From an uncultured Candidatus Saccharibacteria bacterium (GTDB lineage: Bacteria > Patescibacteriota > Minisyncoccia > Phycocordibacterales > UBA5272): DNA of 64,000 bases. The stretch covers positions 27,018 to 91,017 of the forward strand of contig CAZJDZ010000001.1 in assembly GCA_964544935.1 (NCBI GenBank). The letters are read 5' to 3'. Below the pieces are notes generated by a model. It did not search any database, was not told where the DNA came from, and saw only the letters and a program-made list of their open reading frames with translations. Each line of letters begins with the position of its first letter. The first letter of the stretch is position 1. This document shows positions 3,125-54,563 of the stretch, one piece after another. A program made the translations under genes and the position numbers.

Positions 3125-4477
3125 CTATTCTTCCAAAAATTTCTTTACTTTAGCTAAACCTGGAATTTTATTCAAATATTCCAAATCTTCTTCATTAAAA
3201 ATCTTCACAAGTTTTTTAGCAACGTCTTCTTTGTATTTACATAATTCAAGAGAATTCTTACCAGAAATAGCACTAATCACATCACTTTTTGCCATCCCAG
3301 CTCTGACATATTGATTCTCTGAGAAAATATTCAAAATATCTCCTCCAACTAAGGGATCATTACTCACCTCAGACCAATTATTAGGGAAAAATTTATCAAG
3401 CTTTCCCCTCATTATTTTTTGTTCTTTTATATCATTATTTAATGTATCAACAAGCAGAAAAACTTTTCCAGAATATGGGTAAAAATTATCATTCCCGCGT
3501 AAGTGCACAGAAAGAGACTCTGTAATAATTTTCATGCGAGAAACTTCAACTGAACCATCTCCTATACCTTTTAATTTATTAAGAAAAACTTTACCCGTAT
3601 CTACTCCAGATAATTCAAGATACTTAGATACAATCAGTCGATCAGAGCCTCCTTCAACTATTACTATTTTTTCTGGCAAGAATAAGTCTGCCAAAGAAAA
3701 ACCTAACTTGTCTATAATAATTTTTTTATACAAATCTTCACTGTTAGACATTACTTCAAATTCTGGTTTTCCATTTTTAACATCAACAATAAAATTATTT
3801 TCAGGTGTTTGTCTATTTATGAAATGAGGAGAGTGGGTAGCAATAACAATAAATTGATCTTTTGATTTTTCAAGCAAAACTTCATAAAGAAGTTTTTGAA
3901 CTGATGGTTCGAGTGAAATTTCAGGTTCATCTATAAAAATAACAGGGTAACCCGATGTTAGAGCTGCCATAATATGAAAAGCAGCACGAAGACCTGATCC
4001 ATCAAAAGACGAATTTAAATTTAATTCAGAATTTTTCCATTGTGACTCCTTACTAATATAATTTATTCCAAAAAATCTTTGTATAAGTTCTTTAAATTCT
4101 GGCTTTTGTGCAGTTTCGTTTTCAGTTAATAAAGTTGAAAAAAGATTTCTTGAGTATGCATACCAAACGGATGGTCTGTTGTCATTATTTTGTATATTAG
4201 CTATAGCTGCTGCCGTTGTTTGTAAAAGTGTTTGACCTCCTGTATTTTGACTACTTAAAATATCATCAACCCCTGTTCTTTCGGCGGGGATGTATATTAT
4301 CTTTCTATTTTTATGTGCCGTATGATTCATTTGACCGATCAAACTCTTAAGTACTGATGTTTTTCCTGAACTATTTTTGCCAGTCAAGACAAACAGACCA
4401 TTTTCAGGATATACACCATTAGCAAAAGGGAAATCGTAGCTTGTTAAAACTTTTCCACAAATTTGATTTATTAACAT
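3125..4477 (-). CDS. OLD-family ATP-dependent endonuclease (ABC-type ATPase fused to a TOPRIM domain)
   Basis: Walker A LTGKNSSGKTS; signature-like GSGLRAAFHIMAALT; Walker B VIFIDEPEISL; H-loop VIATHSP; then KIVIVEGGSDRLIV and VFLLVDTLNND, which are TOPRIM-like acidic motifs. Confidence 0.65.
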   Translation of the reverse strand: MLINQICGKVLTSYDFPFANGVYPENGLFVLTGKNSSGKTSVLKSLIGQMNHTAHKNRKIIYIPAERTGVDDILSSQNTGGQTLLQTTAAAIANIQNNDNRPSVWYAYSRNLFSTLLTENETAQKPEFKELIQRFFGINYISKESQWKNSELNLNSSFDGSGLRAAFHIMAALTSGYPVIFIDEPEISLEPSVQKLLYEVLLEKSKDQFIVIATHSPHFINRQTPENNFIVDVKNGKPEFEVMSNSEDLYKKIIIDKLGFSLADLFLPEKIVIVEGGSDRLIVSKYLELSGVDTGKVFLNKLKGIGDGSVEVSRMKIITESLSVHLRGNDNFYPYSGKVFLLVDTLNNDIKEQKIMRGKLDKFFPNNWSEVSNDPLVGGDILNIFSENQYVRAGMAKSDVISAISGKNSLELCKYKEDVAKKLVKIFNEEDLEYLNKIPGLAKVKKFLEE

Positions 4478-4574
4478 ATTTATAATTTAATTTTGCGGAG
4501 GCATATTCATAGTTGCGATTACGCTCCTTGAAATGCACTGCGCAAAATCTGGTCGCGAGTACGCTCGCGATTTT

Positions 4575-4667
4575 GCGGTGATTATGGGTTAAGTACCCAC
4601 AGGTCTTGACCCCATAAGGGTATTTTAGCATCTTTTTCGAGCTCTAAAATATGTATGTGGGTCGCTA
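4575..4667. repeat. copy A of a ~90-bp intergenic repeat family (GGTTAAGTACCCAC ... CCATAAGGGTATTT ... AAAATATGTATGTGGGTCGCTA)
   Basis: Near-identical blocks at 24222..24311 and 24828..24920. Contains a GTGGGT/ACCCAC hairpin. Confidence 0.7.
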
Positions 4668-4845
4668 TCCAAATGCCAATAAATGCCAAAATTCTGAACT
4701 TTTGAAAATATAAGGAATTCAGAGAAAAAGCTTTATTAATAAGGATATTGTGAAGATTTTTAGTAAAAATATGAATTTCATATTTGGCATTTTAACTTTT
4801 TGCCTGAAATTTCTTAACAACACCATAAAATGGTAAAATTTAGAA

Positions 4846-6009
4846 ATGATTAAGGATCTTAATAGTTACCTGACCGACCAAGAGTTCTTCACTTACGTGA
4901 AGTTCTTGGACTTGATCGTTGATAAGAACTATAAAGATCTTGATGATCATGAATTTGGAATACGAGATCTCAGCATTGGAAGTGAAAGCGTCTACCAAAC
5001 TTTTAAAAGAGCATTTGAATTTTTGGATCTCGTTGATCCATCAATAAAAATAGAGAGCTATAATTTGAAGGAAACAGAAGTTCGGTTTGAAATATCAAAT
5101 AGACCAAAAAATGAGCAAATCAATCTCAACAAAATAATAGATAAAATTCTTAAGGATAAATCGATCAAGTTTAGTGATGTTGGTGCCCTCTCTTGGGTAT
5201 GGTACGAAGTCTACAGTGCCGCACGATTTACTCCCGACACTTACACAATACCTCATACTGTTCGTGAAAAAATAGCTGATAACATTAACCAATACTTGGA
5301 TAACCTGATTAACAACAAGCTCGCTATTGTAAAAAAGAACTACTATAAGTTTGAGATTTTAAAACAGACCCTTATTCAAATTATTGAAGAAGACAAAATG
5401 ATTCCGCTTTACGGGACTAATTTCATTATCAAAAAAGGAATCGATGAAAACGGTAACGTAAAAGGCTTACCTGATTTTTGCATCCTTCAAACCGTCTATG
5501 CGCTAGAGAGACTTGGATACTTAAAGGTTGTAAAAGTGTGGGAAGATATTAAATATAAGTCTGAATACATCACATCCGATGAAAAAGATAAGACGCGATT
5601 TATCTGTGTAAATATCATTCTTGAAGACATATTCATTAAAGAGATTTACAATAAGTATAAGAAGGAGAATCCTAAAAATATCATCGAAAGTTTTGATGAG
5701 GCAAAAGGCATTCTTAAATTTGCAGGAGAAACCATAGAATTATCATCTAAAGGAAAAGAGACAGATGCTTCTCTCTTAATGAAAGCGTTGCTTAAAAATG
5801 ACGATGACGAATGGATGCACAACGATGAGATATTCCAAGTCTGGGGTTTCAATGAAAAAGACATCAAGAACGCAGCCAAAAACAAGATCTATTTTGCTGC
5901 ACAGAAAGTAAATAACAATGTTGCGATAAAAACAGGAATCGAAGATTTCCTTGATTTTACAACCACAAAAGCGCGTATCAATCCTCGTTACAAAAAAGTT
6001 GATGAATAA
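4846..6009 (+). CDS. hypothetical protein (387 aa), divergent from the OLD gene
   Basis: Long clean ORF, lysine-rich, with no recognisable motif. Confidence 0.55.
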   Translation: MIKDLNSYLTDQEFFTYVKFLDLIVDKNYKDLDDHEFGIRDLSIGSESVYQTFKRAFEFLDLVDPSIKIESYNLKETEVRFEISNRPKNEQINLNKIIDKILKDKSIKFSDVGALSWVWYEVYSAARFTPDTYTIPHTVREKIADNINQYLDNLINNKLAIVKKNYYKFEILKQTLIQIIEEDKMIPLYGTNFIIKKGIDENGNVKGLPDFCILQTVYALERLGYLKVVKVWEDIKYKSEYITSDEKDKTRFICVNIILEDIFIKEIYNKYKKENPKNIIESFDEAKGILKFAGETIELSSKGKETDASLLMKALLKNDDDEWMHNDEIFQVWGFNEKDIKNAAKNKIYFAAQKVNNNVAIKTGIEDFLDFTTTKARINPRYKKVDE

Positions 6010-6104
6010 TTGATAAACGTTCCGCCAATATTTATCAACACCTCCACCGTATCCTGAAGTCACACCCTTCGGGATGTTTTAATTGTAATAACAAAATAAC
6101 GTAT

Positions 6105-7397
6105 ATGGCTCAAACCATCGTGTGGAAGGAAGTGAAGGTAAAGGTAGCGGATCTCATCCCTGCCGATTACAACCCTAGAAAAATAAGTGCGAAGGAACGT
6201 GCAGAATTAACAACATCCGTAGAACAGTTCGGTCGTGTAGAGCCAGTTATCGTCAACACTGGCAAGCGTAAGAACTGTGTCATTGGTGGACATCAACGGC
6301 TTAAGATCTATGCCGATCTTGGTGTTACAGAAATAGAAGCAAAGGTACCAAGTCGTGAACTCACCGAAGATGAAGAAAAAGAACTCAATTTAAGACTCAA
6401 CAAAAATACTGGTTCATGGGACTTCGATAAGTTAGGAGAGTTTGATATGGATATGCTTCTTAATGTCGGTTTCGATGACGATGAATTGCAAGGCATGTTT
6501 GATGACGTTGATGTATCAGATGATGATTTTGACGTAGAGAAGGCTATTAAGGAAACCACGATGCCGAAAGTGAAGCTCGGCGAGATATGGGAACTTGGCG
6601 AACACAGATTGCTTGTTGGAAGTTCAACAGATGAGACTGCTGTCAGATTATTGATGGATAAGGATATGGCAGACATTGTGTATTGTGACCCACCATATAA
6701 CATCGGCTTGGACTATTCTAAAGGTCTTGGTAAGAATGAGAAGTACGGTGGGAGTTACTCAGGTAAGGATGATTCCAAAAAAGCGAAAGACTATGCGAAA
6801 TTCATGAATGACAGTATCTCTGTTGCTCTACAATTTGCAAAGCAAAGTGCTCACTTTTTCTACTGGTGTGATTCTACGAATATCGGACTCATTCAAGGAT
6901 TCTATGCGGACAACAAGATCATAAGTAGACGAGTGTGTATGTGGATCAAGAATAACCAGAACCCTACACCGAAAATTGCCTTCAACAAGGTGTATGAACC
7001 GTGTGTGTATGGCACGATTGGTACTCCACATCTCAACAAAGGGTTCCAAAATGCTAACGAAGTTCTAAACCAAGAAGTCGGTAGTGGTAACCAACTTCAC
7101 GACGAGATACTTGAAATGATAGACCTATGGATTGTGAAGCGTGATAGCACGAAAGAGTACATGCATCCGACACAGAAGCCTGTGAGCTTAAACGAGAAGC
7201 CATTTAAGCGTTGCTCTGCCCCTGGACAGATAATATTCTCAGGATTCGGTGGTAGTGGCAGTGATTTAATTGCGTGTGAACAACTGCATCGTAAGTGGCG
7301 TGGTGTAGAGCAAGACTTAATCTTCGCAACCATCATTATCGACAGATGGGAGAAATTTACTGGTAAGAAAGCAAAACTCATCTATGGTAGTAAATAA
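6105..7397 (+). CDS. ParB-like nuclease domain fused to an N4/N6 DNA methyltransferase
   Basis: N-terminal ParB/Srx motif (IGGHQRLKIY); methyltransferase motif IV VYCDPPYNIG; C-terminal motif I FSGFGGSGSDLIACEQLHRK (beta-class order). Confidence 0.8.
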   Translation: MAQTIVWKEVKVKVADLIPADYNPRKISAKERAELTTSVEQFGRVEPVIVNTGKRKNCVIGGHQRLKIYADLGVTEIEAKVPSRELTEDEEKELNLRLNKNTGSWDFDKLGEFDMDMLLNVGFDDDELQGMFDDVDVSDDDFDVEKAIKETTMPKVKLGEIWELGEHRLLVGSSTDETAVRLLMDKDMADIVYCDPPYNIGLDYSKGLGKNEKYGGSYSGKDDSKKAKDYAKFMNDSISVALQFAKQSAHFFYWCDSTNIGLIQGFYADNKIISRRVCMWIKNNQNPTPKIAFNKVYEPCVYGTIGTPHLNKGFQNANEVLNQEVGSGNQLHDEILEMIDLWIVKRDSTKEYMHPTQKPVSLNEKPFKRCSAPGQIIFSGFGGSGSDLIACEQLHRKWRGVEQDLIFATIIIDRWEKFTGKKAKLIYGSK

Positions 7398-8139
7398 CGG
7401 AGACATATTTGAGATTGCAGGACATACCATTGCTTGTGGTGACTCGCTTGATAGATTCTTTGTGAGTAAAGTAATAAATGGCAGAAAGATACGAGCAGTG
7501 ATAAGTGATCCACCGTACGGTGTAGCGTACGTAGAGAACAAGAAGGACATTGTAAGTCTTGGTGTCAAAGATGCTAAGGTAATTGTTGGCGACCAGATAC
7601 AGAGTGAATACGAATACGTACAGTTCACCAAGAAGTGGACTGAATGTGTCATTCCTCATTTGGACAAATACAACACCTTCCATATCTTTAACTCAGATAC
7701 GATGTTTCTAGGATTACGTACTGGGATGCAGATGGCTAATATTCATTTCAGTCAGATGCTCATCTGGCTTAAGAATCAACCGGTGATGGGTATGAAGGAT
7801 TACTTGTCTCAGTTTGAAGTCATTGCTTACGGTTGGTATGGGAAGCATAAGATGGAACGATCAAAAGCAAAGAGTGTTATCTATCATCCAAAGCCACGAT
7901 CTTCCAAGCTTCACCCTACACAAAAGCCAGTTGGATTACTGAGGAAAATAATCCCGAACGTTACGGTCATTGGTGATTACGTTTACGACGCCTTCTCAGG
8001 AAGTGGAACGACTGCTATTGCTTGTGAACACTTAGGTCGAAAGTGTATTGGTATAGAGCTTGATCCAGAGTATGTAAAAGTCATACTTTCACGTCTTGAG
8101 AAGCTAACCAAACAAAAAGCAGTCAAACGAATAGACTGA
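7384..8139 (+). CDS. N4/N6 DNA methyltransferase (orphan-type)
   Basis: ISDPPYGVAYV (motif IV) and FSGSGTTAIACEHLGRKCIGIELD (motif I). It overlaps the upstream gene by 14 nt. Confidence 0.8.
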   Translation: MVVNNGDIFEIAGHTIACGDSLDRFFVSKVINGRKIRAVISDPPYGVAYVENKKDIVSLGVKDAKVIVGDQIQSEYEYVQFTKKWTECVIPHLDKYNTFHIFNSDTMFLGLRTGMQMANIHFSQMLIWLKNQPVMGMKDYLSQFEVIAYGWYGKHKMERSKAKSVIYHPKPRSSKLHPTQKPVGLLRKIIPNVTVIGDYVYDAFSGSGTTAIACEHLGRKCIGIELDPEYVKVILSRLEKLTKQKAVKRID

Positions 8140-8519
8140 TGGACGAGCTAACACAAAGAAAAGGTGGAGTATACCGTAAGCAAGATTTTAACTCTTACGT
8201 TCTTTGGAAGTCCCTGCCTTCATTTCTCAAAGGTCAGCCAAAAATCATGCTTGAGAAGTTTGGCATCACTGATGGGCTTGCAGTTGAGCTACTCCAAATC
8301 AAAACACAAGGAGAGTTTGCGACGAAGTTTGGCATCAAAGACCCAGGCACACTCACCGACTGGAACAAACGAATTGAGAAAGAAGGACTACTCACATCCA
8401 TTAACTCATGGGCAAGAAGTCTTACGCCAAACGTGGTGCTTGCTCTCTACAAGAATGCAAGTAAGCATGGTAAAGCCCAAGAAGTGCGTGCATGGTTTGA
8501 AATTATAGAAAACAATTAA
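8139..8519 (+). CDS. hypothetical protein, possible HTH/DNA-binding (terminase-small-subunit-like guess is weak)
   Basis: 126 aa; start overlaps the upstream stop (TGATGG). No firm motif. Confidence 0.45.
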   Translation: MDELTQRKGGVYRKQDFNSYVLWKSLPSFLKGQPKIMLEKFGITDGLAVELLQIKTQGEFATKFGIKDPGTLTDWNKRIEKEGLLTSINSWARSLTPNVVLALYKNASKHGKAQEVRAWFEIIENN

Positions 8520-8524
8520 ACACT

Positions 8525-8734
8525 ATGGAACCCAAGATCAAAAAAGTCCTCACCCTAGAGGAAATCAATGAAATCCTCTCAGACGCACTCATGCGTGTAT
8601 CTGAGAGAAAATTACCCCTTAGACAAGCAACACTTATCTCAAAGCTTGCCCTATCACTCTCTAAGAACATCGTGAACACCGAGCTTAAGAACAGAGTCGA
8701 GTTCTTAGAGCAACAACTTAAACAAAGAAAATAG
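8525..8734 (+). CDS. hypothetical small protein (69 aa)
   Basis: Tightly packed in the same operon, with 6-nt and 3-nt gaps to its neighbours. Confidence 0.4.
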   Translation: MEPKIKKVLTLEEINEILSDALMRVSERKLPLRQATLISKLALSLSKNIVNTELKNRVEFLEQQLKQRK

Positions 8735-8736
8735 CT

Positions 8737-10212
8737 ATGAAAAATATCTCTGATTTACTCCGTACTGGTAACCTTACTCCCAAAGAGAGGATACTCTTCT
8801 GTATACATGATGAAATACAGGAGTTAAAGACTGGTCTAAAGTCACTCACTCCCTCTGATCTCTATGCACTCTCTTCTGGATGGAGACCAAAGGATAGCTA
8901 TGAAGCACAGGAATACAACAAGTACTACAATGCATGGGATGTCATACAACTTCTTAAAATAGATGTGCAGACGACCTACTTAAACACCATTATCGATATA
9001 CGTAGCATGGAACGAGTACTTGCTTACCTTATGTATAGCAAGGAACCGAAGAATCTCTTGGCTGGGAAAGGGTTTGACGATGAGGCACTCCGCGAGATAC
9101 TGAGGAATACTGGACTCGACTACAACCTTCTCCTACATCGACTTACATTTGATGGATTACCACTCAACATACAGAAAGACCTACTTGCACTTGATCCTGA
9201 CGCAGAGACAAGTACTCAATACTTTGACCACGAGAAGAAGTTGTACGAGGTGTTGAATGGTAAAACTTCACTTACCTCTAAAGAGGTCGACACCCTGACA
9301 GACATCGTCATCGACTCCATTCCGTGGGAGTACTTAAGCCTCGTCACAGATAGAGGTCTCAATTTCATGAACATTCTTTTTAATGGATACTTTGCCAGTA
9401 TTCCGCTTGTTGTCTTTGCTGAGAAGTTAGCAAAGAAGCTACACATTGAGTACGAGAATGAAGATGAACTGAAAGCAAAAGTAGCTAAGGTACCAAACAT
9501 ACAGAATGAGCTACGAACACTCATTCATGATGAGATACAAGGTGGACTATTCTTTAGAGATTATGCACCACTCTGTAACAGTACCACCCACGAAACATGT
9601 AGTGATACCGATACCAAGTTACCCCACCACGAACTCATGGAGTTATGGATGAAGGAGAAAGCAAAGCAGGAAAAATTCTTACAAGGGTACATTGATAGCG
9701 GAAAGCTTGTTGTGGAAGATAGACAAAAGGAACTATTCACTATACGTAAATGCTACAAATCCATCACTGGAGAAAGTCTTTACTATTTAGATGAGGACTT
9801 ACCTTTCGTAAACGATTACAAGAAGCAAGTCGAGAAGTTACTGATACTCGGCTGTCTTCTTGCCTTCATCAAGAGGCGACCATTTTTGCAGTACTATGCT
9901 GAACTACTCTACTTCAATGTGTTTCTTGAAAAGGCGTCGAAAATATTTGAGATTGATCTTGCATTCTACGGAGAAAACTATACGAACGTCATCAAAGAAG
10001 AGGTTAATTTACTTAATGAACAGATTCTGATTATCGCTGAAAAAGTGGAGGAAGGATTATACCTAAAAAATGACATACGCTACCACGCAGAAATATATAT
10101 ACATGACATGCAGATATCGGTAGATGACGTTACTCCAGTGACTAATCGTTGCTTAGAACTTGCAGAGAAAAAGATTGACGAATCGTTTAGAGGTTGGTGG
10201 GGGAAGATGTGA
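8737..10212 (+). CDS. hypothetical protein (491 aa)
   Basis: Long ORF that ends the co-directional module 6105..10212. No Walker or nuclease motifs were seen. Confidence 0.55.
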   Translation: MKNISDLLRTGNLTPKERILFCIHDEIQELKTGLKSLTPSDLYALSSGWRPKDSYEAQEYNKYYNAWDVIQLLKIDVQTTYLNTIIDIRSMERVLAYLMYSKEPKNLLAGKGFDDEALREILRNTGLDYNLLLHRLTFDGLPLNIQKDLLALDPDAETSTQYFDHEKKLYEVLNGKTSLTSKEVDTLTDIVIDSIPWEYLSLVTDRGLNFMNILFNGYFASIPLVVFAEKLAKKLHIEYENEDELKAKVAKVPNIQNELRTLIHDEIQGGLFFRDYAPLCNSTTHETCSDTDTKLPHHELMELWMKEKAKQEKFLQGYIDSGKLVVEDRQKELFTIRKCYKSITGESLYYLDEDLPFVNDYKKQVEKLLILGCLLAFIKRRPFLQYYAELLYFNVFLEKASKIFEIDLAFYGENYTNVIKEEVNLLNEQILIIAEKVEEGLYLKNDIRYHAEIYIHDMQISVDDVTPVTNRCLELAEKKIDESFRGWWGKM

Positions 10213-19775: not shown

Positions 19776-21101
19776 ATGAAAACAACAGCACCCAAGGGCT
19801 ATGAACTAGCTAAATCACTAACAGAACCAATAAAGACAAGGTATTGCCTCTATGCTCGTAAATCAACAGAATCTGAGGAAAGACAGGTTCTTTCTATAGA
19901 TTCGCAGATAAAGGAGATGCTTGAACTTGCAGATCGAGAAGGATTGGAAATCGTGTGTATGAAGCGTGAGTCTCACTCTGCAAAGGAAACAGGACAACGA
20001 CCGGTATTCAATGAAATAATAGACGAAATACGAGCAAAGAAATTCAATGGGATCCTGACATGGGCACCTGACCGTATCAGTCGTAACGCAGGAGATCTTG
20101 GAAAGATTGTTGACTTGATGGATGCAGGACTACTGCAAGAAATACGAACATACGGGCAGAAATTCTCAAACAACCCTAATGAAAAATTCCTGCTCATGAT
20201 TTTAGGGAGCCAAGCGAAACTTGAGAATGACAATCGTGGAGTAAACGTAAAGCGAGGGTTACGCACACGAGTAGAGATGGGTTTATGGCCTGGGCAAGCA
20301 CCACTTGGGTATCTGAATCAGCGACACTTAGATAAAAAGTGTCAGCTTATCGTTGATCCCGAGCGAGCACCTATCGTAAAGAAAATGTTTGAGAAGGTTG
20401 CGTATGAAAAACTAAGCGGAAGAAAGATATACAATTGGCTTCGTTTTGAAGCCAATTTTTATACTAGAGGAAACAAACCTTTAACGCTCAGTGGTGTCTA
20501 TCGAATCCTTGATAATCAGTTCTATCATGGACTCTTTGAACATCCGAAAGGTAGTGGTAACTGGTATACAGGTAAACACGAGCCACTGATCACTCAAGAA
20601 CTATTTGAGAAAGCTCAGGTACAGCTTAAGCGAGATAACATACAGCGTGAGAACAAGGAGTTCTCATTTACTAAACTGTTCACGTGTGGTTACTGCTCTA
20701 GTGGTATATCAGCTGAAGAAAAGTGGAAGGACCTAAAAGATGGTACTCATGCGAAATACATCTACTATTCTTGTAGTCGAGCACGAGACCGTAACTGTAA
20801 GAATAAATATATTCGTGAGGAAGAACTCATTACCGAACTGCTCAAGATTCTCGATAAGGTGGATATCAACGAGCTTGGCATGCGACAGAAACTTGAAGAC
20901 GAGATTGCGCGTTTTAATATCTTTCAAAGATCGGTACTCGGTAGCACTGATAAAGTAGACAATAGAAAAGATACTGATATTCGAAACTATGCTAAGTACA
21001 TCTTGAAAGAAGGTACTGTTATGGAGAAGCGAGAACTACTAGCGAATCTACGATCAAGAATTATTTATAAAGATAAAGAGCTTACTTTGATTGTTGAATA
21101 A
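19776..21101 (+). CDS. large serine recombinase (resolvase/invertase N-domain, recombinase domain and zinc ribbon)
   Basis: Catalytic region YARKSTESEERQVLSIDSQ; C-terminal CGYCSSG...CSRARDRNC zinc ribbon; 441 aa. Confidence 0.85.
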   Translation: MKTTAPKGYELAKSLTEPIKTRYCLYARKSTESEERQVLSIDSQIKEMLELADREGLEIVCMKRESHSAKETGQRPVFNEIIDEIRAKKFNGILTWAPDRISRNAGDLGKIVDLMDAGLLQEIRTYGQKFSNNPNEKFLLMILGSQAKLENDNRGVNVKRGLRTRVEMGLWPGQAPLGYLNQRHLDKKCQLIVDPERAPIVKKMFEKVAYEKLSGRKIYNWLRFEANFYTRGNKPLTLSGVYRILDNQFYHGLFEHPKGSGNWYTGKHEPLITQELFEKAQVQLKRDNIQRENKEFSFTKLFTCGYCSSGISAEEKWKDLKDGTHAKYIYYSCSRARDRNCKNKYIREEELITELLKILDKVDINELGMRQKLEDEIARFNIFQRSVLGSTDKVDNRKDTDIRNYAKYILKEGTVMEKRELLANLRSRIIYKDKELTLIVE

Positions 21102-21219: not shown

Positions 21220-21309
21220 TGGCGGAGGATGTGAGATTCGAACTCACGGACCTAATAAAAGGTCGACGGTTTAGTAAACCGTTGATTTAAGCCACTCATC
21301 CAATCCTCC
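21220..21309 (-). tRNA. type II tRNA, Ser-like paralog with anticodon loop UUACUAA (anticodon ACU as read)
   Basis: Manual fold: acceptor GGAGGAT/ATCCTCC; discriminator G; encoded CCA; long variable arm GACCT..AGGTC; T-arm GTGAG-TTCGAAT-CTCAC. It differs from tRNA-Ser(GCU) at position 34 (G to A). Confidence 0.6.
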
Positions 21310-23740: not shown

Positions 23741-23817
23741 TTTTATTTGCGGAAACGAGAGGATATTCGGTCACAAATCTGCCTCCCGACTCACTGCGTT
23801 CGCTGGAGAGGATCCGG
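23741..23817. repeat. direct repeat copy 1, ~70 bp, starting with tRNA-Ser 3'-end-like sequence GCGGAAACGAGAGGAT
   Basis: Second copy at 23990..24056 (about 95% identical). Both resemble the 3' acceptor/T-stem of tRNA-Ser(GCU) at 25507..25535. Confidence 0.7.
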
Positions 23818-23989
23818 TCACCAAACATATCTTTTTATTTTCGTCTTACAGACTAAATAAAAAGATTGTTTCGCGACCCCGGCTTCGACACTTCAGTTTT
23901 GATTACAAAACTGGCTTCGCAGTGTCTCAGTTCGAACCCTCTTCATTCTCTCGCAAAATATAAATCACCCAAAGCTTTGCTTTGGGTTC

Positions 23990-24056
23990 ATTATTTTGCG
24001 GAGACGAGAGGATATTCGGTCACAAATCTACCTCCCGACTCACTGTGTTCGCTGGA
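23990..24056. repeat. direct repeat copy 2 (tRNA-Ser 3'-end-like)
   Basis: ttattttgcggagacgagaggatattcggtcacaaatctacctcccgactcactgtgttcgctgga. Confidence 0.7.
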
Positions 24057-24221
24057 CTAGAATTTTAACAGATTGATTACAATCTAAAAAATTCGTCGCG
24101 CATGCTCGAAGCAGATTCGCGACCCCTATTCGAATCCTCACGCATGACGCGCAGGCGTCATGCTTCGTCTCCTCAGAATGTAAAAAGCGACATCTTAAGA
24201 TATCGCTTTTTACATTCTGCG

Positions 24222-24311
24222 GGCCGTGTGGGTTAAGTACCCACGTGTTTAGACACCATAAGGGTATTTGATCATCTTTTTCGAGCTCTAAAATATGTAT
24301 GTGGGTCGCTA
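24222..24311. repeat. copy B of the ~90-bp intergenic repeat family
   Basis: Aligned with copies A and C. Confidence 0.7.
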
Positions 24312-24782: not shown

Positions 24783-24827
24783 ATAGATATTCTAGCATCT
24801 GGGTCACTCCGATACTTTTACATTATG

Positions 24828-24920
24828 GCGGTGATTGTAGGTTAAGTACCCACACGTCTAGACACCATAAGGGTATTTTAACATCTCTTCCAAGCTATAA
24901 AATATGTATGTGGGTCGCTA
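24828..24920. repeat. copy C of the ~90-bp repeat family, preceded by a duplicate of the tRNA-Ser 3' flank (cgatacttttacattatggcgg)
   Basis: Aligned with A and B. The flank at 24812..24835 matches 25488..25511. Confidence 0.7.
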
Positions 24921-25487: not shown

Positions 25488-25506
25488 GTACGATACTTTT
25501 ACTTTA

Positions 25507-25596
25507 TGGCGGAGACGAGAGGATTCGAACCTCCGAGGGATTTAACTCCCTGCCTCTTTAGCAAAGAGGTACGTTAGACCACTCTGACACGTCTCC
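25507..25596 (-). tRNA. tRNA-Ser(GCU), type II
   Basis: Manual fold: GGAGACG acceptor; anticodon arm CCTCT-TTGCTAA-AGAGG; long variable arm; T-loop TTCGAAT; discriminator G; CCA encoded. Confidence 0.85.
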
Positions 25597-28082: not shown

Positions 28083-28200
28083 TTCAGGTCCCGCTTTCTA
28101 TAATAGTACAATCTAAAAAGAGACTATCATGTTCATACATAAAGTCAAAACAAAAGAGCGACGCCTACGGCGTCGCTCTTTTGTTTTGAAATTCTATTGA

Positions 28201-28740: not shown

Positions 28741-29139
28741 GATTGTAGTGATTACGCTTCACCAACGTGTCGTATCTGGAATTTTTGCGAAAAATAAAAT
28801 ACCTACTCGGTAAATTATTGACTTTCCACTTTATTATTGTGTAATGTAATTATAGCACCTATTGGATCAAAAGTCAAGCATTACACAACAAAATATACTA
28901 TATTGTCAATATGCAGTTCCTAAAAAACCTTATTTTATATAGATAATTTGCAAAATAGAAAAAAACGTGTTATTATCCAATTTACCTAGTTTTCCTTACT
29001 TTTATGCGAAAACTAGTAATTTTATACGGCCTCATCGTCTATCGGTTGGGCGATCAGTAGATCGTGCCGAGAGGCTTAGCAGGTTCCTGTGTCCTGATGT
29101 AAAATACACAGTACACAACGTTTCTTTAATAAAAAATAC

Positions 29140-29211
29140 GGCCTCATCGTCTATCGGTTAGGACACAGGCTTCTCATGCCTGGAAGCGGAGTTCGATTCT
29201 CCGTGAGGTCA
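29140..29211 (+). tRNA. tRNA-Glu(CUC)
   Basis: Manual fold: GGCCTCA acceptor; D-arm GTC..GAC; anticodon arm CAGGC-TTCTCAT-GCCTG; T-arm CGGAG-TTCGATT-CTCCG. Closely resembles E. coli tRNA-Glu. Confidence 0.75.
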
Positions 29212-29367
29212 CATCAACAAAAATACACAGGTAATTCCTGTGTATTTTTGTTGACGGTGATCAATAGAAGCAAAACACCTGCGTGTTTTGCGGGAGAATC
29301 GAATGGGGCTCGCGGGACTTTATCGAGGAGTTCATGACGAGAAGTCCTGTGAGCGATTCTCTGTGAG
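29207..29367. repeat. 161-bp direct repeat R1, 100% identical to R2
   Basis: Starts at the tRNA-Glu 3' end. Contains a terminator hairpin and one copy of the conserved ~70-nt element. Confidence 0.9.
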
Positions 29368-29595
29368 CCAATATGAATTGCTTCTTGTGCGTGGAGAATC
29401 GAATACGGGCGAGTCAGCAGACGAACTAGCAAGTGAGTGTCTTGGATCGAGTGTCCTACGTGATTTCGCGAATCTGCTTCGAGCATAGCGAGGCAGATTT
29501 GTGACCGATTCTCCTTGAAGTCATCAACAAAATTTTAACCTGATTCTATTTAAAGTAAATATCGCCAAGCAGTTTCCTGCTTGGCGATTAGTTTG

Positions 29596-30085: not shown

Positions 30086-30246
30086 GGTCACATCAACAAA
30101 AATACACAGGTAATTCCTGTGTATTTTTGTTGACGGTGATCAATAGAAGCAAAACACCTGCGTGTTTTGCGGGAGAATCGAATGGGGCTCGCGGGACTTT
30201 ATCGAGGAGTTCATGACGAGAAGTCCTGTGAGCGATTCTCTGTGAG
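30086..30246. repeat. 161-bp direct repeat R2
   Basis: Identical to 29207..29367. Confidence 0.9.
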
Positions 30247-33587: not shown

Positions 33588-33907
33588 TCTTCTGCTCCTG
33601 TTTTCACTGTAGATATTGAAAGGGCAACAACCTGTTTAACTGCTCGGAGTAAACCAAGCCGACTAACAAGTTGATAGAATACTACCACAAACAAACAGTA
33701 ACGTCTACATGAAAGGTGGATAAGTACAGGATGCTGTAGCTCAAGAAGCTTGGCTTCGAAGACATCCGAAGCTAGCAAGCGTAGGATGCTGTAGCTTGTA
33801 GCTGAAATTCTACGGGTGCAAATTAAACACAAATGCGTGACGCCTACGGCGTCACGCATTGTATTGTATGTAAGCTAAAGGCTACAAGCTAACAACTAAA
33901 AACTTCT

Positions 33908-45799: not shown

Positions 45800-46099
45800 T
45801 AACGTTATTGTTTATTTTAATAATACTTATTAAGTATAGCTTCTTAAAATAAGATTAAGAGCTAAGATGTACACATTTCTTACAGGAATCATGAGTACAC
45901 TTTCGGTCACAAGACTTCTGACTAACCCTATAAAAAATAAGATAACCAACCCTATTTGAATATTTATTTTCTTTTCATATACAGTATTCTTGAATCAGCC
46001 CGAATACGTTTTACTTCCATGGTTGAAAAATCAACTCTCAAGCAAAAGTGACACAGTCACAACTCTCACAATTTTAAATTTTTCTTTGTTAGCAACACT

Positions 46100-46870
46100 C
46101 TACTGATTAATGAATTTAAAACTCTCAAGAATAGTTTTTGCAGTGACATCTTCTTCTGGTAACCAAACCATGAATTTGAGACCGTTATTTTCCATAAAAA
46201 GATAACGATACTTTTTTGATAATGAATATGAAGCATTTTCAGTATGAAACTCGCCAGTCAAGGTAAACTGATACACTACTTTACCACCTATAGTCGTTTG
46301 GGAAATTTGTCCGACTTCTTTATTTACTCCATTTGGGTTTATATATTCTTTATTTTCTCTCCAAATTTCCTGCACAAATTCTTTGAGGGGCAATTTCGTC
46401 ACCTTAATTGCAGCAGGGTCACCCGAATAACCTTGTACCTCAACATTAAAATTAGTTTTATTTCCTGACCAATAAACACTAAAAGCTTCATTCTCGTCAG
46501 TTGTAAATTCATTGCTTTCCACAAAACTAATTTGTGGGTGATTAAAACTGTAACCATACTTCTTATTCGTGAATGTAAGCCATCCCTCTGTGGCCTCGCT
46601 AGTATTTGAAGATGCTTGCTGCGCTGTAGAAGTGGTGGCTACCTGGGCAGTTGTCGAATTAGAAATCTGCACTTCAGAAAGTTCTTGTGGAATACTTTGC
46701 TTGCTTTCTGAACTAAAAGTAGATGATTGATGATCACTATAATACGCAACTAGAACTGCTACAGAAATAAAAACAAAAGCAGCAAGAGCGATTAGTGATT
46801 GTTTCTTATGATTTACTAATTGAATAGGTTGAGTAGCAGAAACTGAAGGTGTTTGATTGTTTATTTCCAT
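46100..46870 (-). CDS. hypothetical membrane-anchored extracellular protein
   Basis: N-terminal TM segment (LIALAAFVFISVAVLVAYY); no catalytic motif. Confidence 0.5.
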   Translation of the reverse strand: MEINNQTPSVSATQPIQLVNHKKQSLIALAAFVFISVAVLVAYYSDHQSSTFSSESKQSIPQELSEVQISNSTTAQVATTSTAQQASSNTSEATEGWLTFTNKKYGYSFNHPQISFVESNEFTTDENEAFSVYWSGNKTNFNVEVQGYSGDPAAIKVTKLPLKEFVQEIWRENKEYINPNGVNKEVGQISQTTIGGKVVYQFTLTGEFHTENASYSLSKKYRYLFMENNGLKFMVWLPEEDVTAKTILESFKFINQ

Positions 46871-47231
46871 AATACTAATTTAGTAAGTATACCTAATAAG
46901 GTGATACATATATATTGTTATCAACAAGAATAGATTATTAATAAGACAAAGGTAATCGGTCACCTCGTCTTACTTCTCTCGAAACAGGAGACTCCGTGGC
47001 CCCTATCTGATTCCTAACAGAGATCAAATAGTTTTATTCATCCCATAAACTAATACACGTTATGCTCTCGACAGGAAACGTGAGTAAACTTTCGGTCACA
47101 GAATCATTTTTAGATTACTAAAATAAAAGATTCTGCGACCCCTATCCGATTCCTGACGAAAAGCACGCAGGTGCTTTTCTCCGAGAGCACAGAATACAAA
47201 AAGTAACATCAAGTGATGTCACTTTTTGTAT

Positions 47232-47307
47232 TCTGTGCTCTCGGCAGGAATCGGACCCACATTAATCCCTTAGGACGGGACTGTTCTATCCATTGAACTA
47301 CGAGAGC
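47232..47307 (-). tRNA. tRNA-Arg(CCU)-like
   Basis: Manual fold: acceptor GCTCTCG/CGAGAGC; D-arm GTTC..GAAC with GG; anticodon loop GUCCUAA; T-arm GTGGG-TCCGATT-CCTGC. Atypical residues at positions 32 and 55. Confidence 0.5.
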
Positions 47308-47695: not shown

Positions 47696-47895
47696 CCTTA
47701 CTACACCACCGCGTTGAAGGCTGTTCCTTTTTATGCTAGAATTGAGAAATCAACAAAAAAGTTGAAGTTGTAGAATATACTGGGATAGCTCGAGAAGCTT
47801 GGCTTCGAAGATATCTGGAACCAGCAGGTGGAAGACGCAAGTTGTTAGATTGTTCAAGTGAAAATAAACAAAGTAGGCAGAAGAAATAAACATAT

Positions 47896-47968
47896 GCTGG
47901 GATAGCTCAGTTGGTAGAGCATTTGCCTGAAGAGCAAAGGGTCCCCAGTTCGAGCCTGGGTCCCAGCA
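47896..47968 (+). tRNA. tRNA-Phe(GAA)
   Basis: GCTGGGA acceptor; D-arm GCTCAGTTGGTAGAGC; anticodon arm TTTGC-CTGAAGA-GCAAA; T-arm GGGTC-CCCAG..; a long palindromic hairpin follows (47970..48022). Confidence 0.9.
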
Positions 47969-48045
47969 CAAAATACAAAAAGCAGTATCTAAAAAGATGC
48001 TGCTTTTTGTATTTTGTGCTGGGACAGTACGACGCCTGCGCGTCG

Positions 48046-48116
48046 TACGTCCAGGTTCGAATAGGGGTCGCGGAACAAACTCGAGGAGCTTGTGACGAGG
48101 AGTTCCGTGACCGAAC
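48046..48116 (+). repeat. copy of the conserved ~70-nt tRNA-flanking element (core TCGAATAGGGGTCGCGGA, nested helices)
   Basis: Outer helix CAGGTTCG/CGAACCTG and inner helix GTCGCGGAAC/GTTCCGTGAC. Homologous copies occur at 29276..29367 (also in R2), 48146..48215, 29386..29510, and inverted at 24100..24135, 46965..46992 and 47136..47160. Confidence 0.6.
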
Positions 48117-48294
48117 CTGATTTCTAAAGTGACCTTCGTCACTTTTGTCCAGGCTCGAATAGGGGTCGCGGAGTAACTTCGATGTCCGAAGTATGGAGGG
48201 TCTCTGTGACTGACTCCCTGATAATTTGACAATATACTTTTAAAGTTGTAGATTTATTTTGTTCTTCACTCAATTAGCAGCAAAGGAGACTTTT

Positions 48295-48498
48295 ATGTCA
48301 GGCAATGTTTTTATGAACCCTTTGGCAGTCTGGATTTTCATTGCGATCATCTTTGCCATTCCGACGATTATCGGTCTGGCTAGTAGCTCATGGTTATTGT
48401 TCTTTATTACTATGTTGATCGAACTTGTCCTTGCTTCTGTGTGCTACAAGATTAACGATAACCGACGTCTCAACAAGGCCTGGCACGACTTATCTTGA
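48295..48498 (+). CDS. small membrane protein (67 aa) with AAGGAG SD
   Basis: MSGNVFMNPLAVWIFIAIIFAIPTIIGLASSSWLLFFITMLIELVLASV; terminator at 48515..48550. Confidence 0.5.
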   Translation: MSGNVFMNPLAVWIFIAIIFAIPTIIGLASSSWLLFFITMLIELVLASVCYKINDNRRLNKAWHDLS

Positions 48499-49269: not shown

Positions 49270-49564
49270 AGCTTTGCTAGTATATAGTTTACCATGGCGC
49301 CCACACTAAAAGTGGCTACCTATAATACAATACCTATGATATTTAATGCAAAAAATAAAAAAACAATACAACGAGTGTGGGCAGTTATCTCGATTCTTGC
49401 AATCGTTGGAATGATTGGATTTTCTTTGATTCCTTTTATTGGATAACGACTACCGATAAAAAATGCACGACGCCTACGGCGTCGTGCATTTTTTATATAT
49501 CAATCTAAACCAGAAAGAGAATCTGTACCAGAGCTACATACTTTAGTGACATATCATACATAGG

Positions 49565-53936: not shown

Positions 53937-54014
53937 TATTATTGTATAATATCAAAAAAATGCTGTAATTAGAAGGCAAAAGAGCGGCGCCTATGGCGCC
54001 GCTCTTTTATCTTT

Positions 54015-54491: not shown

Positions 54492-54563
54492 ATGAGTAAC
54501 AATACAACTAAATTATACAAAAAGCAATAGTGTCGCCTGCGGCGACACTATTGCTTTTTGTAA

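Follow-up and report, generated by a model that had tools for sequence, protein, structure and literature searches.

Direct repeats of the tRNA 3' end lying downstream of the gene are the classical footprint of tRNA-gene integration, and repeats of this kind that begin in the T-loop are the textbook mark of T-loop-class integrases. Integron attC sites and the folded attP(+) of CTXphi are recognised as folded strands, as we propose for the repeats described here. We know of no structured intergenic repeat family whose arms are templated by the neighbouring gene. Patescibacteria have tiny genomes and single-copy tRNA genes, and their gene gain and loss are poorly understood; in these bacteria (CPR bacteria) we find a family of folded, tRNA-adjacent repeats that has apparently not been described previously. 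Tentatively, we favour the reading that its members are small integrative units, non-autonomous and directed at the tRNA 3' end, whose recognised form may be a single folded strand.

Copies at four tRNA loci

A conserved element of about 70 nt had been flagged in a preliminary description of the window, by which we mean the whole 64-kb stretch of DNA analysed. The element is real, with nine copies at four tRNA loci and none elsewhere in the window, and it is the constant core of a larger modular repeat of about 100-160 nt on the 3' ends of tRNA genes (the module). The motif WTCGAATAGGGGTCGCGGA has six matches in the window at ≤3 mismatches, against 0.01 expected by chance. The covariance-model search suggested at the outset, run on the window without filters and with a model of 71 relatives, returned only module copies and nothing convincing elsewhere. 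Adjacency to tRNA genes was always found, and the hairpin with a CCTGCG loop (hp1), first reported as preceding several copies, is a covarying and integral component. The inverted copies reported at 24100-24135, 46965-46992 and 47136-47160 are present but are merely the 5' parts of full minus-strand modules. Copy G had been placed beside a tRNA-Ser remnant, which is wrong, as its arms match the intact tRNA-Ser(GCT) at 25507-25596, 1.3 kb upstream. The element matches no family in Rfam 15: the gathering-threshold scan of the window returned five tRNAs and nothing else, and E-value scans over the modules and three related loci gave chance hairpin-type matches only. Neither ARAGORN nor the Rfam tRNA model called a tRNA or tRNA pseudogene overlapping a module. 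The loci are made up as follows (CM, covariance-model match; z, single-strand fold z-score).

Array 1, tRNA-Glu
29140..29212, + strand: tRNA-Glu(CTC), anchor of the array
29192-29202, + strand: tRNA-Glu T-arm TTCGATTCTCC, template for the closing helix of A
29214..29254, + strand: AT-rich perfect palindrome, terminator-like, between tRNA-Glu and module A; 18-nt arms, 100% complementary
29270..29291, + strand: hp1 of module A, stem GCAAAACAC/GTGTTTTGC, tip CCTGCG
29293..29367, + strand: module A; z=-5.0; CM 29266-29364, 77.8 bits
29370..29516, + strand: module B, long variant; z=-2.5; CM 29422-29516, weaker at 29.9 bits
29596..29868, - strand: ORF of 90 aa under its own promoter, lying between module B and the repeated unit; no Pfam family; candidate cargo
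30086..30246, + strand: second unit copy (last 6 nt of the tRNA, palindrome, hp1, module A'), 100% identical to 29207-29367; CM 30145-30243

Array 2, tRNA-Phe
47896..47969, + strand: tRNA-Phe(GAA), anchor of the array
47960..48025, + strand: palindrome; 31-nt arms, 97%
48027..48122, + strand: hp1 (48027-48048) and module C, P1 CCAGGTTCG/CGAACCTG; z=-5.7; CM 48023-48122, 75.3 bits
48123..48221, + strand: hp1 (loop CCTTCG) and module D, 3' arm degenerate; z=-1.5; CM 48123-48221, 50.1 bits
48259..48498, + strand: 79-aa membrane-like ORF at the far end of the array

Array 3, tRNA-Arg
47235..47307, - strand: tRNA-Arg(CCT), anchor of the array
47181..47244, - strand: palindrome with the tRNA-Arg 3' end and its reverse complement; 31-nt arms, 97%
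47063..47183, - strand: hp1 (47158-47179), module E and a tRNA-Arg 3' end copy; z=-5.1; CM 47084-47183, 70.5 bits
46948..47044, - strand: module F, degenerate second unit; z=0; CM 46948-47044, 21 bits, E=0.009
45882..45911, - strand: orphan 3' piece of an Arg-type module (TGTGACCGAAAGTGTACTCATGATTCCTGT), 90% identical to 47071-47100

tRNA-Ser locus
25507..25596, - strand: tRNA-Ser(GCT), matched by modules G and H (arms compared by eye)
23997..24222, - strand: palindrome (24171-24222), GGAGACG, hp1 (24142-24163) and long module G; CM 24085-24167, 50.9 bits
23760..23917, - strand: module H, alternative type III core ...CCGGGGTCGCGAAACAATC...TGGTGACCGG; repeat family 95%; CM 23806-23917, 13.7 bits, E=0.43

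Array 1 contains an exact 161-nt direct repeat (29207-29367 = 30086-30246) holding A and A', and these two unit copies flank 718 bp containing an ORF. Module A runs from a P1 5' arm (GGAGAATCG) through the bulge AAUGGGG and a variable-tip P2 to the P1 3' arm, ending in a partial copy of the tRNA-Glu 3' end (CGATTCTCTGTGAG), and forms with the tRNA-Glu T-arm an inverted repeat of 11 nt at 100% identity (29192-29202 / 29293-29303). Module B has a degenerate hp1 of the ACTGCTT type, an insertion between bulge and P2, and a 3' arm (CGATTCTCCTTGAAGTCA) that copies the tRNA-Glu 3' end. The left arm of the array 2 palindrome consists of the tRNA-Phe 3' end and an A-rich trailer, while the end of its right arm (GTGCTGGGAC) is the reverse complement of the acceptor 3' strand. 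In array 3, module E is complementary at 47145-47159 to tRNA-Arg at 47241-47255 and is followed at 47063-47078 by a direct copy of the tRNA-Arg 3' end (TTTCCTGTCGAGAGCA); the orphan piece lies past an ORF at 46100-46870. Two inserted genes separate tRNA-Ser(GCT) from modules G and H. The GGAGACG of the G unit copies the tRNA-Ser acceptor, the 3' arm of G is CGAATATCCTCTCGTCTCCGCA, and the core of H is followed by a second copy of the Ser-type 3' arm. The sequence immediately upstream of G is part of a different 98-nt repeat.

Module anatomy and folding

Read from its 5' end, a module opens with an AT-rich palindrome. Next come the acceptor 3' strand in reverse complement, hp1 (loop NCUGCK) and tRNA positions 56-64, again in reverse complement; the core follows, and last the tRNA 3' end as a direct copy beginning at C56 of the T-loop. 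In the constant core, an AAUAGGG bulge precedes the P2 helix (GGUCGCG/UGUGACC), in which one G.U pair is invariant and the tip varies. Its conserved ends are TCGAAUAGGGGUCGCG ... UGUGACCGA, the core end reading ...TTTGTGAC, and the 7-nt bulge of the 5' strand faces a 3' strand with a 2-nt AY bulge in 15 of 77 copies. Occurrences of GAAAGUCCGG in type II cores look coincidental, and the GTTACAYRTGTAAC motif is specific to one Saccharibacteria locus, with none in the window. Hammerhead, K-turn and RNase-P-like motifs, sought by eye only, were rejected, there being no CUGAUGA and no tandem G.A.

Of the neighbouring tRNA, a module contains only the last 18-24 nt at the 3' end, in one inverted and one direct copy, and both copies are specific to the module's own tRNA: the 3' flank, as a direct copy, has a mean local score of 13.0 against 5.8 for other tRNAs, and the 5' flank, as a reverse complement, 11.0 against 7.2. 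In-register arm identity is 96-100% at CGA and ~50% across the acceptor, a decay that fits a displaced, functionless duplicate. The gene trailer (CAAAAT...) is present and CCA absent in 33 of 40 arm copies, which makes DNA, not mature tRNA, the source of the arms; the idea of a retro-element or primer-binding site was rejected on these grounds.

Covariation was seen in hp1, P1 and P2; among 71 distinct copies, hp1 shows double changes at 8/8 pairs, and P2, which is 96.5% paired, at 7/12, one further pair being the invariant G.U. With two conserved G.U positions left out (one invariant, one near-invariant), G.U pairs outnumber A.C by 126:43. In the window, modules A, C and E fold with z-scores of -5.0 to -5.7 and B with -2.5, while D and F are not significant. 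The initial claim of a conserved RNA secondary structure therefore holds for a conserved single-strand fold with real covariation in hp1 and P2, but the strand may be RNA or DNA. The helix changes quoted in its support are present in the copies; that in the closing helix (GAGAATCG/CGATTCTC versus CAGGTTCG/CGAACCTG), however, is not independent compensatory evolution, because its arms were copied from the neighbouring tRNA. In this helix the 3' strand repeats the neighbour's T-loop and T-stem directly, the 5' strand repeats them in reverse complement, and closing helices differ between copies because the neighbours differ (tRNA-Glu versus tRNA-Phe). Since the helix is thus templated by a neighbouring gene, naive covariation counts overstate the structural evidence.

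The main rival to the integrative reading is that the modules are structured tRNA-trailer RNAs, transcribed with or by read-through from the tRNA, which is possible though we rather doubt it. One possibility is a tRNA-shaped molecule, its arms forming the acceptor/T-stem stack and hp1 standing exactly where the D, anticodon and variable arms would be, processed by RNase P and RNase Z; another is a cis-antisense switch, with the 5' arm pairing either with the T-arm and acceptor of the real tRNA or with its own 3' arm. Such an RNA would couple tRNA maturation or stability to a factor binding the bulge, P2 and hp1. The location of hp1 at the exact acceptor/T-stem junction argues for it, as do the strand-specific G.U pairing, the invariant G.U and the conserved unpaired nucleotides. 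So does the antisense arm: at positions of conflict between the two strands, it follows the real tRNA 24 times and its own partner 5 times. In second units, too, the antisense arms track the tRNA and not the neighbouring copy, which the simple integrative-unit model does not predict. Against a trailer RNA stands the acceptor-like outer helix, of which both halves are intact in only ~9/52 first modules in an anchored test, so that a complete tRNA mimic is not conserved; an unanchored test did no better than its control.

We consider it improbable that the modules are REP- or MITE-like palindromes, serving as terminators or insulators of highly transcribed tRNA genes, with arms that are a by-product of DNA mechanics. 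On that view, quasi-palindrome template switching would convert the sequence past a terminator hairpin into the tRNA-end complement, and arrays would form by unequal crossing-over between repeats. The tracking of the tRNA by the antisense arm is compatible with this, and 31-nt near-perfect palindromes indeed take in the tRNA 3' end, such acceptor-strand palindromes occurring also after tRNAs without a module. The loop of the array 3 palindrome is flipped in strain L119 (CT versus AG), a template-switch signature, and at one locus a mirror-image pair of modules surrounds a single palindrome. The base of P2 (GGTCGCG / TGTGACC, with CGA or CGAAY on either side) can be read as an imperfect terminal inverted repeat, and the stems covary as those of a hairpin. 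Yet template switching should erase the asymmetric hp1, which is kept at its exact position with a conserved loop, and it leaves unexplained both the direct tRNA-end copy past the core and the near-identical 18-nt core common to Saccharibacteria, Paceibacterota and Nomurabacteria MAGs. Furthermore, the ORF scans revealed no RAYT or IS200-type gene.

Distribution and strain variation

Low-GC matches with a full module belong to Patescibacteria or to MAGs that are unclassified. Almost every tRNA specificity is represented among the genes that modules follow; the modules stand on the strand of their tRNA, often in tandem arrays, and identical core types occur beside tRNAs of at least 15 specificities. 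The antisense arm was found downstream of 99 of 157 tRNAs on the sampled contigs and upstream of 5, in a sample biased by the use of the core to retrieve the contigs; the 3' 14-mer of the tRNA recurs as a direct copy downstream of 47/124 tRNAs and upstream of 3. Tandem arrays with interchangeable cores occur in other genomes as in the window, and related genomes show interchangeable cores at one tRNA as well as presence and absence among relatives. Contigs end inside modules, these repeats breaking short-read assemblies at tRNA loci.

Part of this distribution is what a trailer RNA would predict: modules are always on the tRNA strand and immediately downstream (≤150 nt in 49/78 and 38/59), those of tRNA-Cys directly abut the tRNA with no palindrome between, and occupancy is high. 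No promoter-like site was found directly upstream of modules, and terminators often follow them. A terminator scan of the module strand called neither the core nor hp1 nor the AT-rich palindromes (the sole hp1 call was on the opposite strand), so that the modules do not count as intrinsic terminators, which are defined by a GC-rich stem with a U tract after it; as the palindromes fail this standard scan, read-through is plausible. On the other hand, some modules are separated by 1.3-3 kb from the tRNA that they still match, and the genes in between have promoters and terminators of their own; these modules cannot be co-transcribed trailers. Degenerate or truncated copies are numerous (for example F, D and the orphan at 45882-45911), and tandem arrays, interchangeable cores and presence/absence would be unusual for a housekeeping RNA.

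The two loci that proved informative in a screen for discordant flank and array identity are the tRNA-Phe locus of the window and a tRNA-Leu(taa) locus. The tRNA-Phe array differs sharply between two strains that are 97-99% identical: its palindrome and hp1 are replaced by unrelated versions of the same design, the breakpoint in module D falls within the core, with the sequence differing from GGGGTCG| onward, and the 79-aa ORF at 48259..48498 is missing in the other strain. This strain-level evidence comes from one locus, and the neighbouring Arg array is stable between strains, which speaks against the integrative reading; the Phe replacement could also be explained by homologous exchange after DNA uptake. 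Across the window, L036 and L119, P1 follows one clean C-G > U.G > U-A path with pairing kept, and this preservation of a paired chromosomal configuration likewise counts against integrative units. Exact-protein look-ups with the genes flanking the Glu and Ser arrays returned nothing or contigs ending in repeats. It had been stated in advance that copies restricted to mobile-element ends would undermine a conserved RNA structure, and in part the modules do follow mobile-element logic, with tandem arrays, tRNA 3'-end direct repeats and replacement between strains.

A Pfam scan of ~50 window ORFs revealed no tyrosine recombinase; the window has one large serine recombinase, 8 kb from array 1. 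No integrase or recombinase recurs across 57 loci of up to 8 kb, whose 411 ORFs clustered into housekeeping families only, held together by synteny, and none of ~140 modules adjoins an integrase. We saw no autonomous element, excised circle or empty site, and blastn of the core against phage and plasmid collections gave no match. A single IMG/VR match, in a high-GC coding region without a tRNA, was attributed to chance, and a phage or plasmid origin on that basis was rejected. Several enclosed genes are bounded by other sequence (a D2 repeat, bare tRNA-end remnants) and have no bounding module of their own, so that the module is not a universal cassette end; enclosed ORFs have their own promoters, and most units are without a gene.

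These searches also bear on the very improbable alternative that modules are scars of integrase-mediated integration, namely leftover attL/attR arms of one widespread, T-loop-integrating phage or plasmid family of Patescibacteria with interiors deleted. Direct repeats of the tRNA 3' end from the T-loop would fit it, and tRNA 3' ends are clear insertion hot spots with gene blocks bounded by tRNA-end remnants. However, duplex arm-type sites would lack arbitrary covarying stems and a strand-specific G.U preference, a single element family would not match at least 15 tRNAs, and neither an integrase beside any of the ~140 modules nor a phage, plasmid or true IMG/VR match was found.

The integrative reading and known systems

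On the integrative reading, a unit would consist of the tRNA 3'-end copy from C56, the AT-rich palindrome, the antisense copy split by hp1, and the core hairpin. It would spread by recombination with a matching tRNA gene within the shared T-loop-to-3'-end segment, supplying a replacement 3' end and a terminator, and a single-copy tRNA would thereby stay intact; the old 3' end would be displaced downstream and decay there. Repeated insertions would build tandem arrays, at times enclosing genes. In what would be a single-stranded DNA form, the antisense arm and the tRNA-end copy may pair into a duplex of the target's own sequence, and a putative recombinase encoded elsewhere would read the bulge, the G.U-containing base of P2 and the hp1 that flank this target-like duplex. 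A mismatched unit would destroy an essential tRNA, so that survival would be limited to units that match their own. Arm identity, direct repeats, arrays, the 161-nt duplication, the strain replacement and folding argue for this reading, as do the at least 15 tRNA specificities, the 99/157 occupancy and the DNA origin of the arms. Against it stand the lack of a linked recombinase in the loci searched and of any autonomous element, circle or empty site among the sequences seen; high occupancy and an invariant G.U are, moreover, no less typical of a functional RNA.

It is conceivable, if doubtful, that the modules represent a native, integron-like but distributed form of cassette capture in Patescibacteria, in which every tRNA gene would be an insertion platform, the hairpin stem would reproduce the 3' end of the target tRNA, and a putative recombinase acting in trans would read the recognition hairpin. 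Equally unexpected would be a cis-encoded antisense 'mask' RNA on most tRNAs that controls tRNA maturation. The family marks hypervariable arrays right behind most sampled tRNA genes and merits an Rfam covariance model. Were it a recombination system, it would provide a phylum-wide path for gene exchange through a folded site that mimics its target; were it RNA, it would add a new class of regulators or mimics linked to tRNAs.

Among described systems, YrlA/Y RNA, the tRNA-like domain of tmRNA, viral TLS and mascRNA share with the modules an acceptor and T-stem topology with a side hairpin. The modules differ in having no Rfam match, a mostly incomplete acceptor helix and a large hairpin in place of the T-loop, and in that each copy mimics a different tRNA. 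IS110 bridge RNA and the tigRNA of TIGR-Tas resemble them in having one arm complementary to the top strand of a target and the other to the bottom, but the two arms of a module span identical positions and form a helix together. 'Parasitic bacteria' are among the hosts of TIGR systems (PMC12045711); module units measure 100-160 nt, as against the 36-nt units of TIGR arrays, in which 8-12-nt repeats alternate with 9-nt spacers, and no Nop-domain Tas or DEDD recombinase gene lies next to modules in the 57 loci. Both systems were therefore rejected for their layout and the genes that accompany them. Also rejected were the group I tRNA introns of Patescibacteria (PMC13011429), which differ in position (the anticodon loop) and in size. 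REP/BIME/REPIN, Correia and RUP sequences and MITEs are, like the modules, short non-coding multicopy hairpins after genes with degenerate copies and arrays. The module hairpins are real, but in the window their copy number goes with tRNA genes instead of being dispersed (9/9 copies at tRNA loci), the ORFs scanned yielded no RAYT or transposase, and we know of no MITE-type parent transposon.

T-loop-class tRNA att sites share with the modules 3'-end direct repeats, a restored tRNA, a displaced old end and arrays at one tRNA. The modules have the direct repeat and no integrase within the element; they are only ~150 nt long, have in addition a conserved folded core and an inverted tRNA-end copy split by hp1, and use one core for at least 15 tRNA species. 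Compared with integron attC sites, they lack RYYYAAC/GTTRRRY core sites and, across ~50 window ORFs and 57 loci, an IntI gene and an attI/Pc platform; their 'platform' is any of many tRNA genes, and their outer helix is tRNA-specific. Nevertheless, the likeness to attC extends to an imperfect hairpin (in the modules a 7-nt 5' bulge, an AY bulge and a variable P2 tip) with a conserved base, one strand carrying unpaired or extrahelical bases, and a terminal structure that varies and measures 20-100 nt, to an outer helix that shares sequence with the primary insertion site (here the tRNA end), and to strand-specific folding in tandem arrays that can enclose genes.

Modules in the window and their fold

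The preliminary description had reported a conserved, structured element of about 70 nt beside tRNA genes, and the repeated element is real: its core motif WTCGAATAGGGGTCGCGGA is matched six times when up to 3 mismatches are allowed, where chance would give 0.01 matches. The flagged 70 nt make up the interior of a larger module, each copy being read with its upstream tRNA. The module runs from the tRNA 3' end through an AT-rich near-perfect palindrome to the reverse complement of the acceptor 3' strand, then through one linker base, a hairpin (hp1) with the tip CCTGCG or ACTGCTT, and a GT linker to the 5' arm, the reverse complement of tRNA positions 56-64 (ending ...TCG). A constant core follows, composed of an AATAGGG bulge and the helix P2 (GGTCGCG.../...TGTGACC) with a variable tip, and the 3' end is a direct copy of the tRNA 3' end from T-loop C56 (CGA...). 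Besides this type I core there are alternative cores combined with the same arms and hp1 (type II, GAAAGTCCGGAG...; type III, ...CCGGGGTCGCGAAACAATC...TGGTGACCG). A covariance model built from 71 relatives (R1) was run unfiltered on the window and returned the matches listed here, with no further convincing modules in the rest of the window.

Modules matched by the R1 covariance model, with the tRNA of their array
29266-29364, module A, Glu
30145-30243, module A', Glu
29422-29516, module B, Glu
48023-48122, module C, Phe
48123-48221, module D, Phe
47084-47183 (-), module E, Arg
46948-47044 (-), module F, Arg
24085-24167 (-), module G, Ser
23806-23917 (-), module H, Ser, weak match

An exact 161-nt direct repeat contains A and A'. 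Single-strand folding gives z-scores of -5.0 to -5.7 for A, C and E and of -2.5 for B, while D and F are degenerate. Rfam 15 identified five tRNAs and no other family in the window, and E-value scans across the modules produced hairpin noise only, which agrees with the earlier failure to match the element to an RNA family; a full-text literature search likewise found no description of such a tRNA-matched folded element. As far as these searches show, the element is undescribed. Five gene-end hairpins (28141-28181, 33820-33860, 49450-49490, 53967-54007 and 54513-54553) have tips (...CGCCTACGGCG... or ...CGCCTGCGGCG...) resembling the CCTGCG of hp1, a loop that the genome may favour for hairpins in general.

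The fold is conserved and strand-specific. In 71 distinct modules (alignment A2), 89.5% of the cells of hp1, the closing helix P1 and P2 are paired, compared with 74.8% after shuffling of columns (none of 500 shuffles reaches the observed value), and the covariation score of 0.469 exceeds both that of shuffles (0.203) and that obtained by offsetting the partners by 1-3 columns (0.085-0.12). Double changes are found at 8 of 8 pairs in hp1 (95.6% of cells paired) and at 7 of 12 in P2 (96.5% paired), where one G.U is invariant (71/71) and a second occurs in 56 of 71. P1 is 81% paired, and its variation is templated by the tRNA. Outside the two conserved positions G.U exceeds A.C by 126 to 43, indicating a fold of the tRNA-sense strand, in its RNA or its DNA form, and not a symmetric duplex or cruciform. 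The structural claim stands for hp1 and P2, which covary; the change in the closing helix, its most striking evidence, has another cause.

Arms templated by the neighbouring tRNA

The arms are copies of the adjacent tRNA, one inverted and one direct. The two closing-helix pairs originally quoted as changing together are present; they differ because one (GAGAATCG/CGATTCTC) copies the T-arm of tRNA-Glu and the other (CAGGTTCG/CGAACCTG) that of tRNA-Phe. Mean local scores are 13.0 for the 3' flank against its own tRNA 3' end (5.8 against other tRNAs) and 11.0 for the 5' flank against the reverse complement of its own tRNA (7.2 against others). Within the window, 29293-29303 is 100% complementary to tRNA-Glu 29192-29202 (TTCGATTCTCC), 47145-47159 pairs with tRNA-Arg 47241-47255, and tRNA-Ser(GCT), 1.3 kb upstream, is matched by G and H (GGAGACG ... 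GAGGATTCG ... CGAATATCCTCTCGTCTCCGCA); the 3' ends of tRNA-Phe and tRNA-Arg sit within 31-nt palindrome arms. Compared in register, the 3' arm and the tRNA are 96-100% identical at C56-A58, 60-85% (mostly 70-85%) at positions 59-64 and ~50% in the acceptor, and the arm has two extra bases (AY) after CGA in 15 of 77 modules. Among 52 first modules, the 5' arm agrees with the reverse complement of 56-65 at no fewer than 9 of the 10 positions in 35 and at no fewer than 8 in 48; an acceptor-like outer helix with both of its halves occurs in just ~9 of 52. At sites where the 3' arm is substituted relative to the tRNA, the 5' arm is Watson-Crick complementary to the tRNA in 24 cases and to the 3' arm of its own module in 5, and in the second units of arrays the 5' arm likewise tracks the tRNA. 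The arm copies carry the gene trailer (CAAAAT...) without CCA in 33 of 40 cases, which rules out the mature tRNA as their source and shows that they were copied from DNA.

A direct copy of the tRNA 3' 14-mer lies downstream of 47 of 124 tRNAs and upstream of 3. Antisense copies of 56-64 lie within 250 nt downstream of 99 of 157 tRNAs and upstream of 5, in a sample biased by retrieval of contigs through the core; the same bias applies to the cores beside those 99 tRNAs, 68 of type I and ~31 others. This high occupancy, the module orientation, the invariant G.U, the position of hp1 at the acceptor/T-stem junction and an antisense arm that tracks the real tRNA all speak for the main rival to the integrative unit proposed below, a trailer RNA acting as a partial tRNA mimic or as a cis-antisense mask, which we regard as possible but somewhat doubtful.

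Relatives, arrays and strain differences

A scan of 185,579 species genomes (596 Gb) with TCGRATAGGGGTCGCRRA gave at least 117 loci, with chance matches estimated at ~140 in 596 Gb. Among the matches listed, those of high GC lack the rest of the element, and at least 56 low-GC loci have the full module, often several from one genome; their named sources are Candidatus Saccharibacteria, Paceibacterota and Nomurabacteria MAGs, the rest being unclassified 'bacterium' MAGs. The tRNA adjacency noted at the outset extends to these relatives: for 78 modules with both cores (these listed low-GC loci and the window), a same-strand tRNA lies within 150 nt upstream in 49 and within 400 nt in 55, and an independent metagenome scan with a pattern free of tRNA-specific sequence (49 loci, 64 modules, 59 of them assessable) found such a tRNA no more than 400 nt upstream of 45. 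The adjoining tRNAs include Lys, Asp, Met, Pro, Gly, Gln, Cys, Ser, Trp, Val, Arg, Phe, Thr, Leu, Glu and Ile. All full copies found are in Patescibacterial or unclassified low-GC MAGs, which makes the window itself almost certainly Patescibacterial, and one Saccharibacteria MAG locus (L036) has local gene order in common with the window. Phage and plasmid collections contained no copies; a single IMG/VR match was rejected as a chance match.

Some loci are arranged differently. At L135 (~760-960) a single palindrome is common to two mirror-orientation modules that no tRNA separates, and the whole is a large inverted duplication with a terminator-like hairpin at its centre. At convergent tRNA-Gly(GCC)/tRNA-Arg(TCG) loci of Saccharibacteria (L022, L045, L047, L080, L085, L103, L114) the two converging arrays meet at a conserved inverted-repeat motif (CCGTTACAYRTGTAACGG, with ..AGGGGAT.. 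ahead of it) that the window lacks. Modules matching Lys, Glu and Gln at L181, L177 and L165 have no detectable tRNA upstream and share a block in its place (GTGTCACTTTTGTCACTTTTT ... GAGAAGGGTCG ... GACCTTGTGGGGYAAGG), which is an unrecognised RNA gene or else a further type of cassette.

Tandem arrays stand behind single tRNAs in other genomes and in the window (Glu, A-B-[ORF90]-A'; Phe, C-D; Arg, E-F; Ser, G-H). Identical P2-tip variants occur beside different tRNAs in different genomes, and in related genomes the same tRNA has different cores or none. One array is replaced between near-identical strains: a comparison strain (L119, L124, L125) with flanking genes 97-99% identical to the window differs directly behind tRNA-Phe, where palindrome and hp1 are of the same design with unrelated sequences. 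Module C is 93% identical, with a paired change from CCAGGCTCG/CGAGCCTG to CCAGGTTCG/CGAACCTG whose U.G intermediate is seen in L036; module D diverges after GGGGTCG|, and a 79-aa ORF (48259-48498) is found in the window only. The Arg array is unchanged except for a flipped palindrome loop. In this palindrome (47181-47244) the 2-nt centre is reverse-complemented (CT in the window, AG in L119) and the adjacent stem is changed, a signature of template switching within the palindrome; that the modules as a whole are REP-like palindromes shaped by such switching is unlikely.

Surroundings of the tRNA genes and a possible integrative unit

Genes sometimes intervene between a tRNA and its matching module, and those examined are bounded by other sequences, namely by the repeat D2 in the window, and at L023 and L057 by bare remnants of tRNA ends. 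Accordingly, tRNA 3' ends are hot spots of insertion in general here, and the module is not the sole kind of cassette end.

Copies of D2, a 98-nt repeat distinct from the module, after GNAT and HAD stop codons
4570-4667
24214-24311
24823-24920

D2 ends in a T-arm-like hairpin (GTGGGTACTTAACCCAC) and ..CACCGCCA, and its folding is unconvincing (z -0.5 to -3.3). The 21-mer CGCCATAAWGTAAAAGTATCG (24810-24830 and 25491-25511 (-)) directly follows tRNA-Ser(GCT) and recurs after a D2 copy; the arrangement resembles a second cassette system that inserts at the tRNA-Ser CCA end, between that tRNA and its matching module G. One D2 copy adjoins an island-like block (3125-10212) encoding an AbiEii-type AAA ATPase, a ParB-domain DNA methylase, a second N6/N4 methylase and two ORFs without family match. 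Duplicated fragments also occur on the 5' sides of two of these tRNA genes, with partial 5' copies upstream of the intact genes for tRNA-Glu (29024-29050; 27 nt, 96% identical) and tRNA-Phe (47770-47838, tRNA-Phe-like, with a related 53-nt stretch at 33737-33789).

No recombinase recurs near the modules, where 411 ORFs from 57 loci cluster only as synteny-held housekeeping families, and a Pfam scan of ~50 window ORFs contained no tyrosine recombinase; scars of classical integrases are a very improbable origin. The same scan identified a large serine recombinase (19776-21101 (+); Resolvase, Recombinase and Zn_ribbon_recom domains) adjoining a tRNA-Ser with the unusual anticodon ACT (21220-21309 (-)), downstream of which AGTATCGGAGTCAACCC resembles the sequence after tRNA-Ser(GCT); an integrated element may end at this site. 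No promoter-like site was found directly upstream of modules, and the AT-rich palindromes received no terminator call.

We tentatively propose that the module is a non-autonomous integrative unit that recombines with the matching tRNA gene in the segment between T-loop and 3' end. Such a unit would supply a spare tRNA 3' end and a terminator, and the old 3' end would be displaced and then decay. A recombinase acting in trans would read the unit as a folded single strand, the stem of which would reproduce the target duplex. We favour this reading because the direct repeats start in the T-loop, because the displaced copy decays, and because arrays, interchangeable cores and strain replacement all fit. 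Against it, no enzyme, circle or empty site was found, and the strain evidence is a single locus. In its mode of working such a unit would resemble the integron attC or the folded attP of CTXphi, while being a member of neither family.
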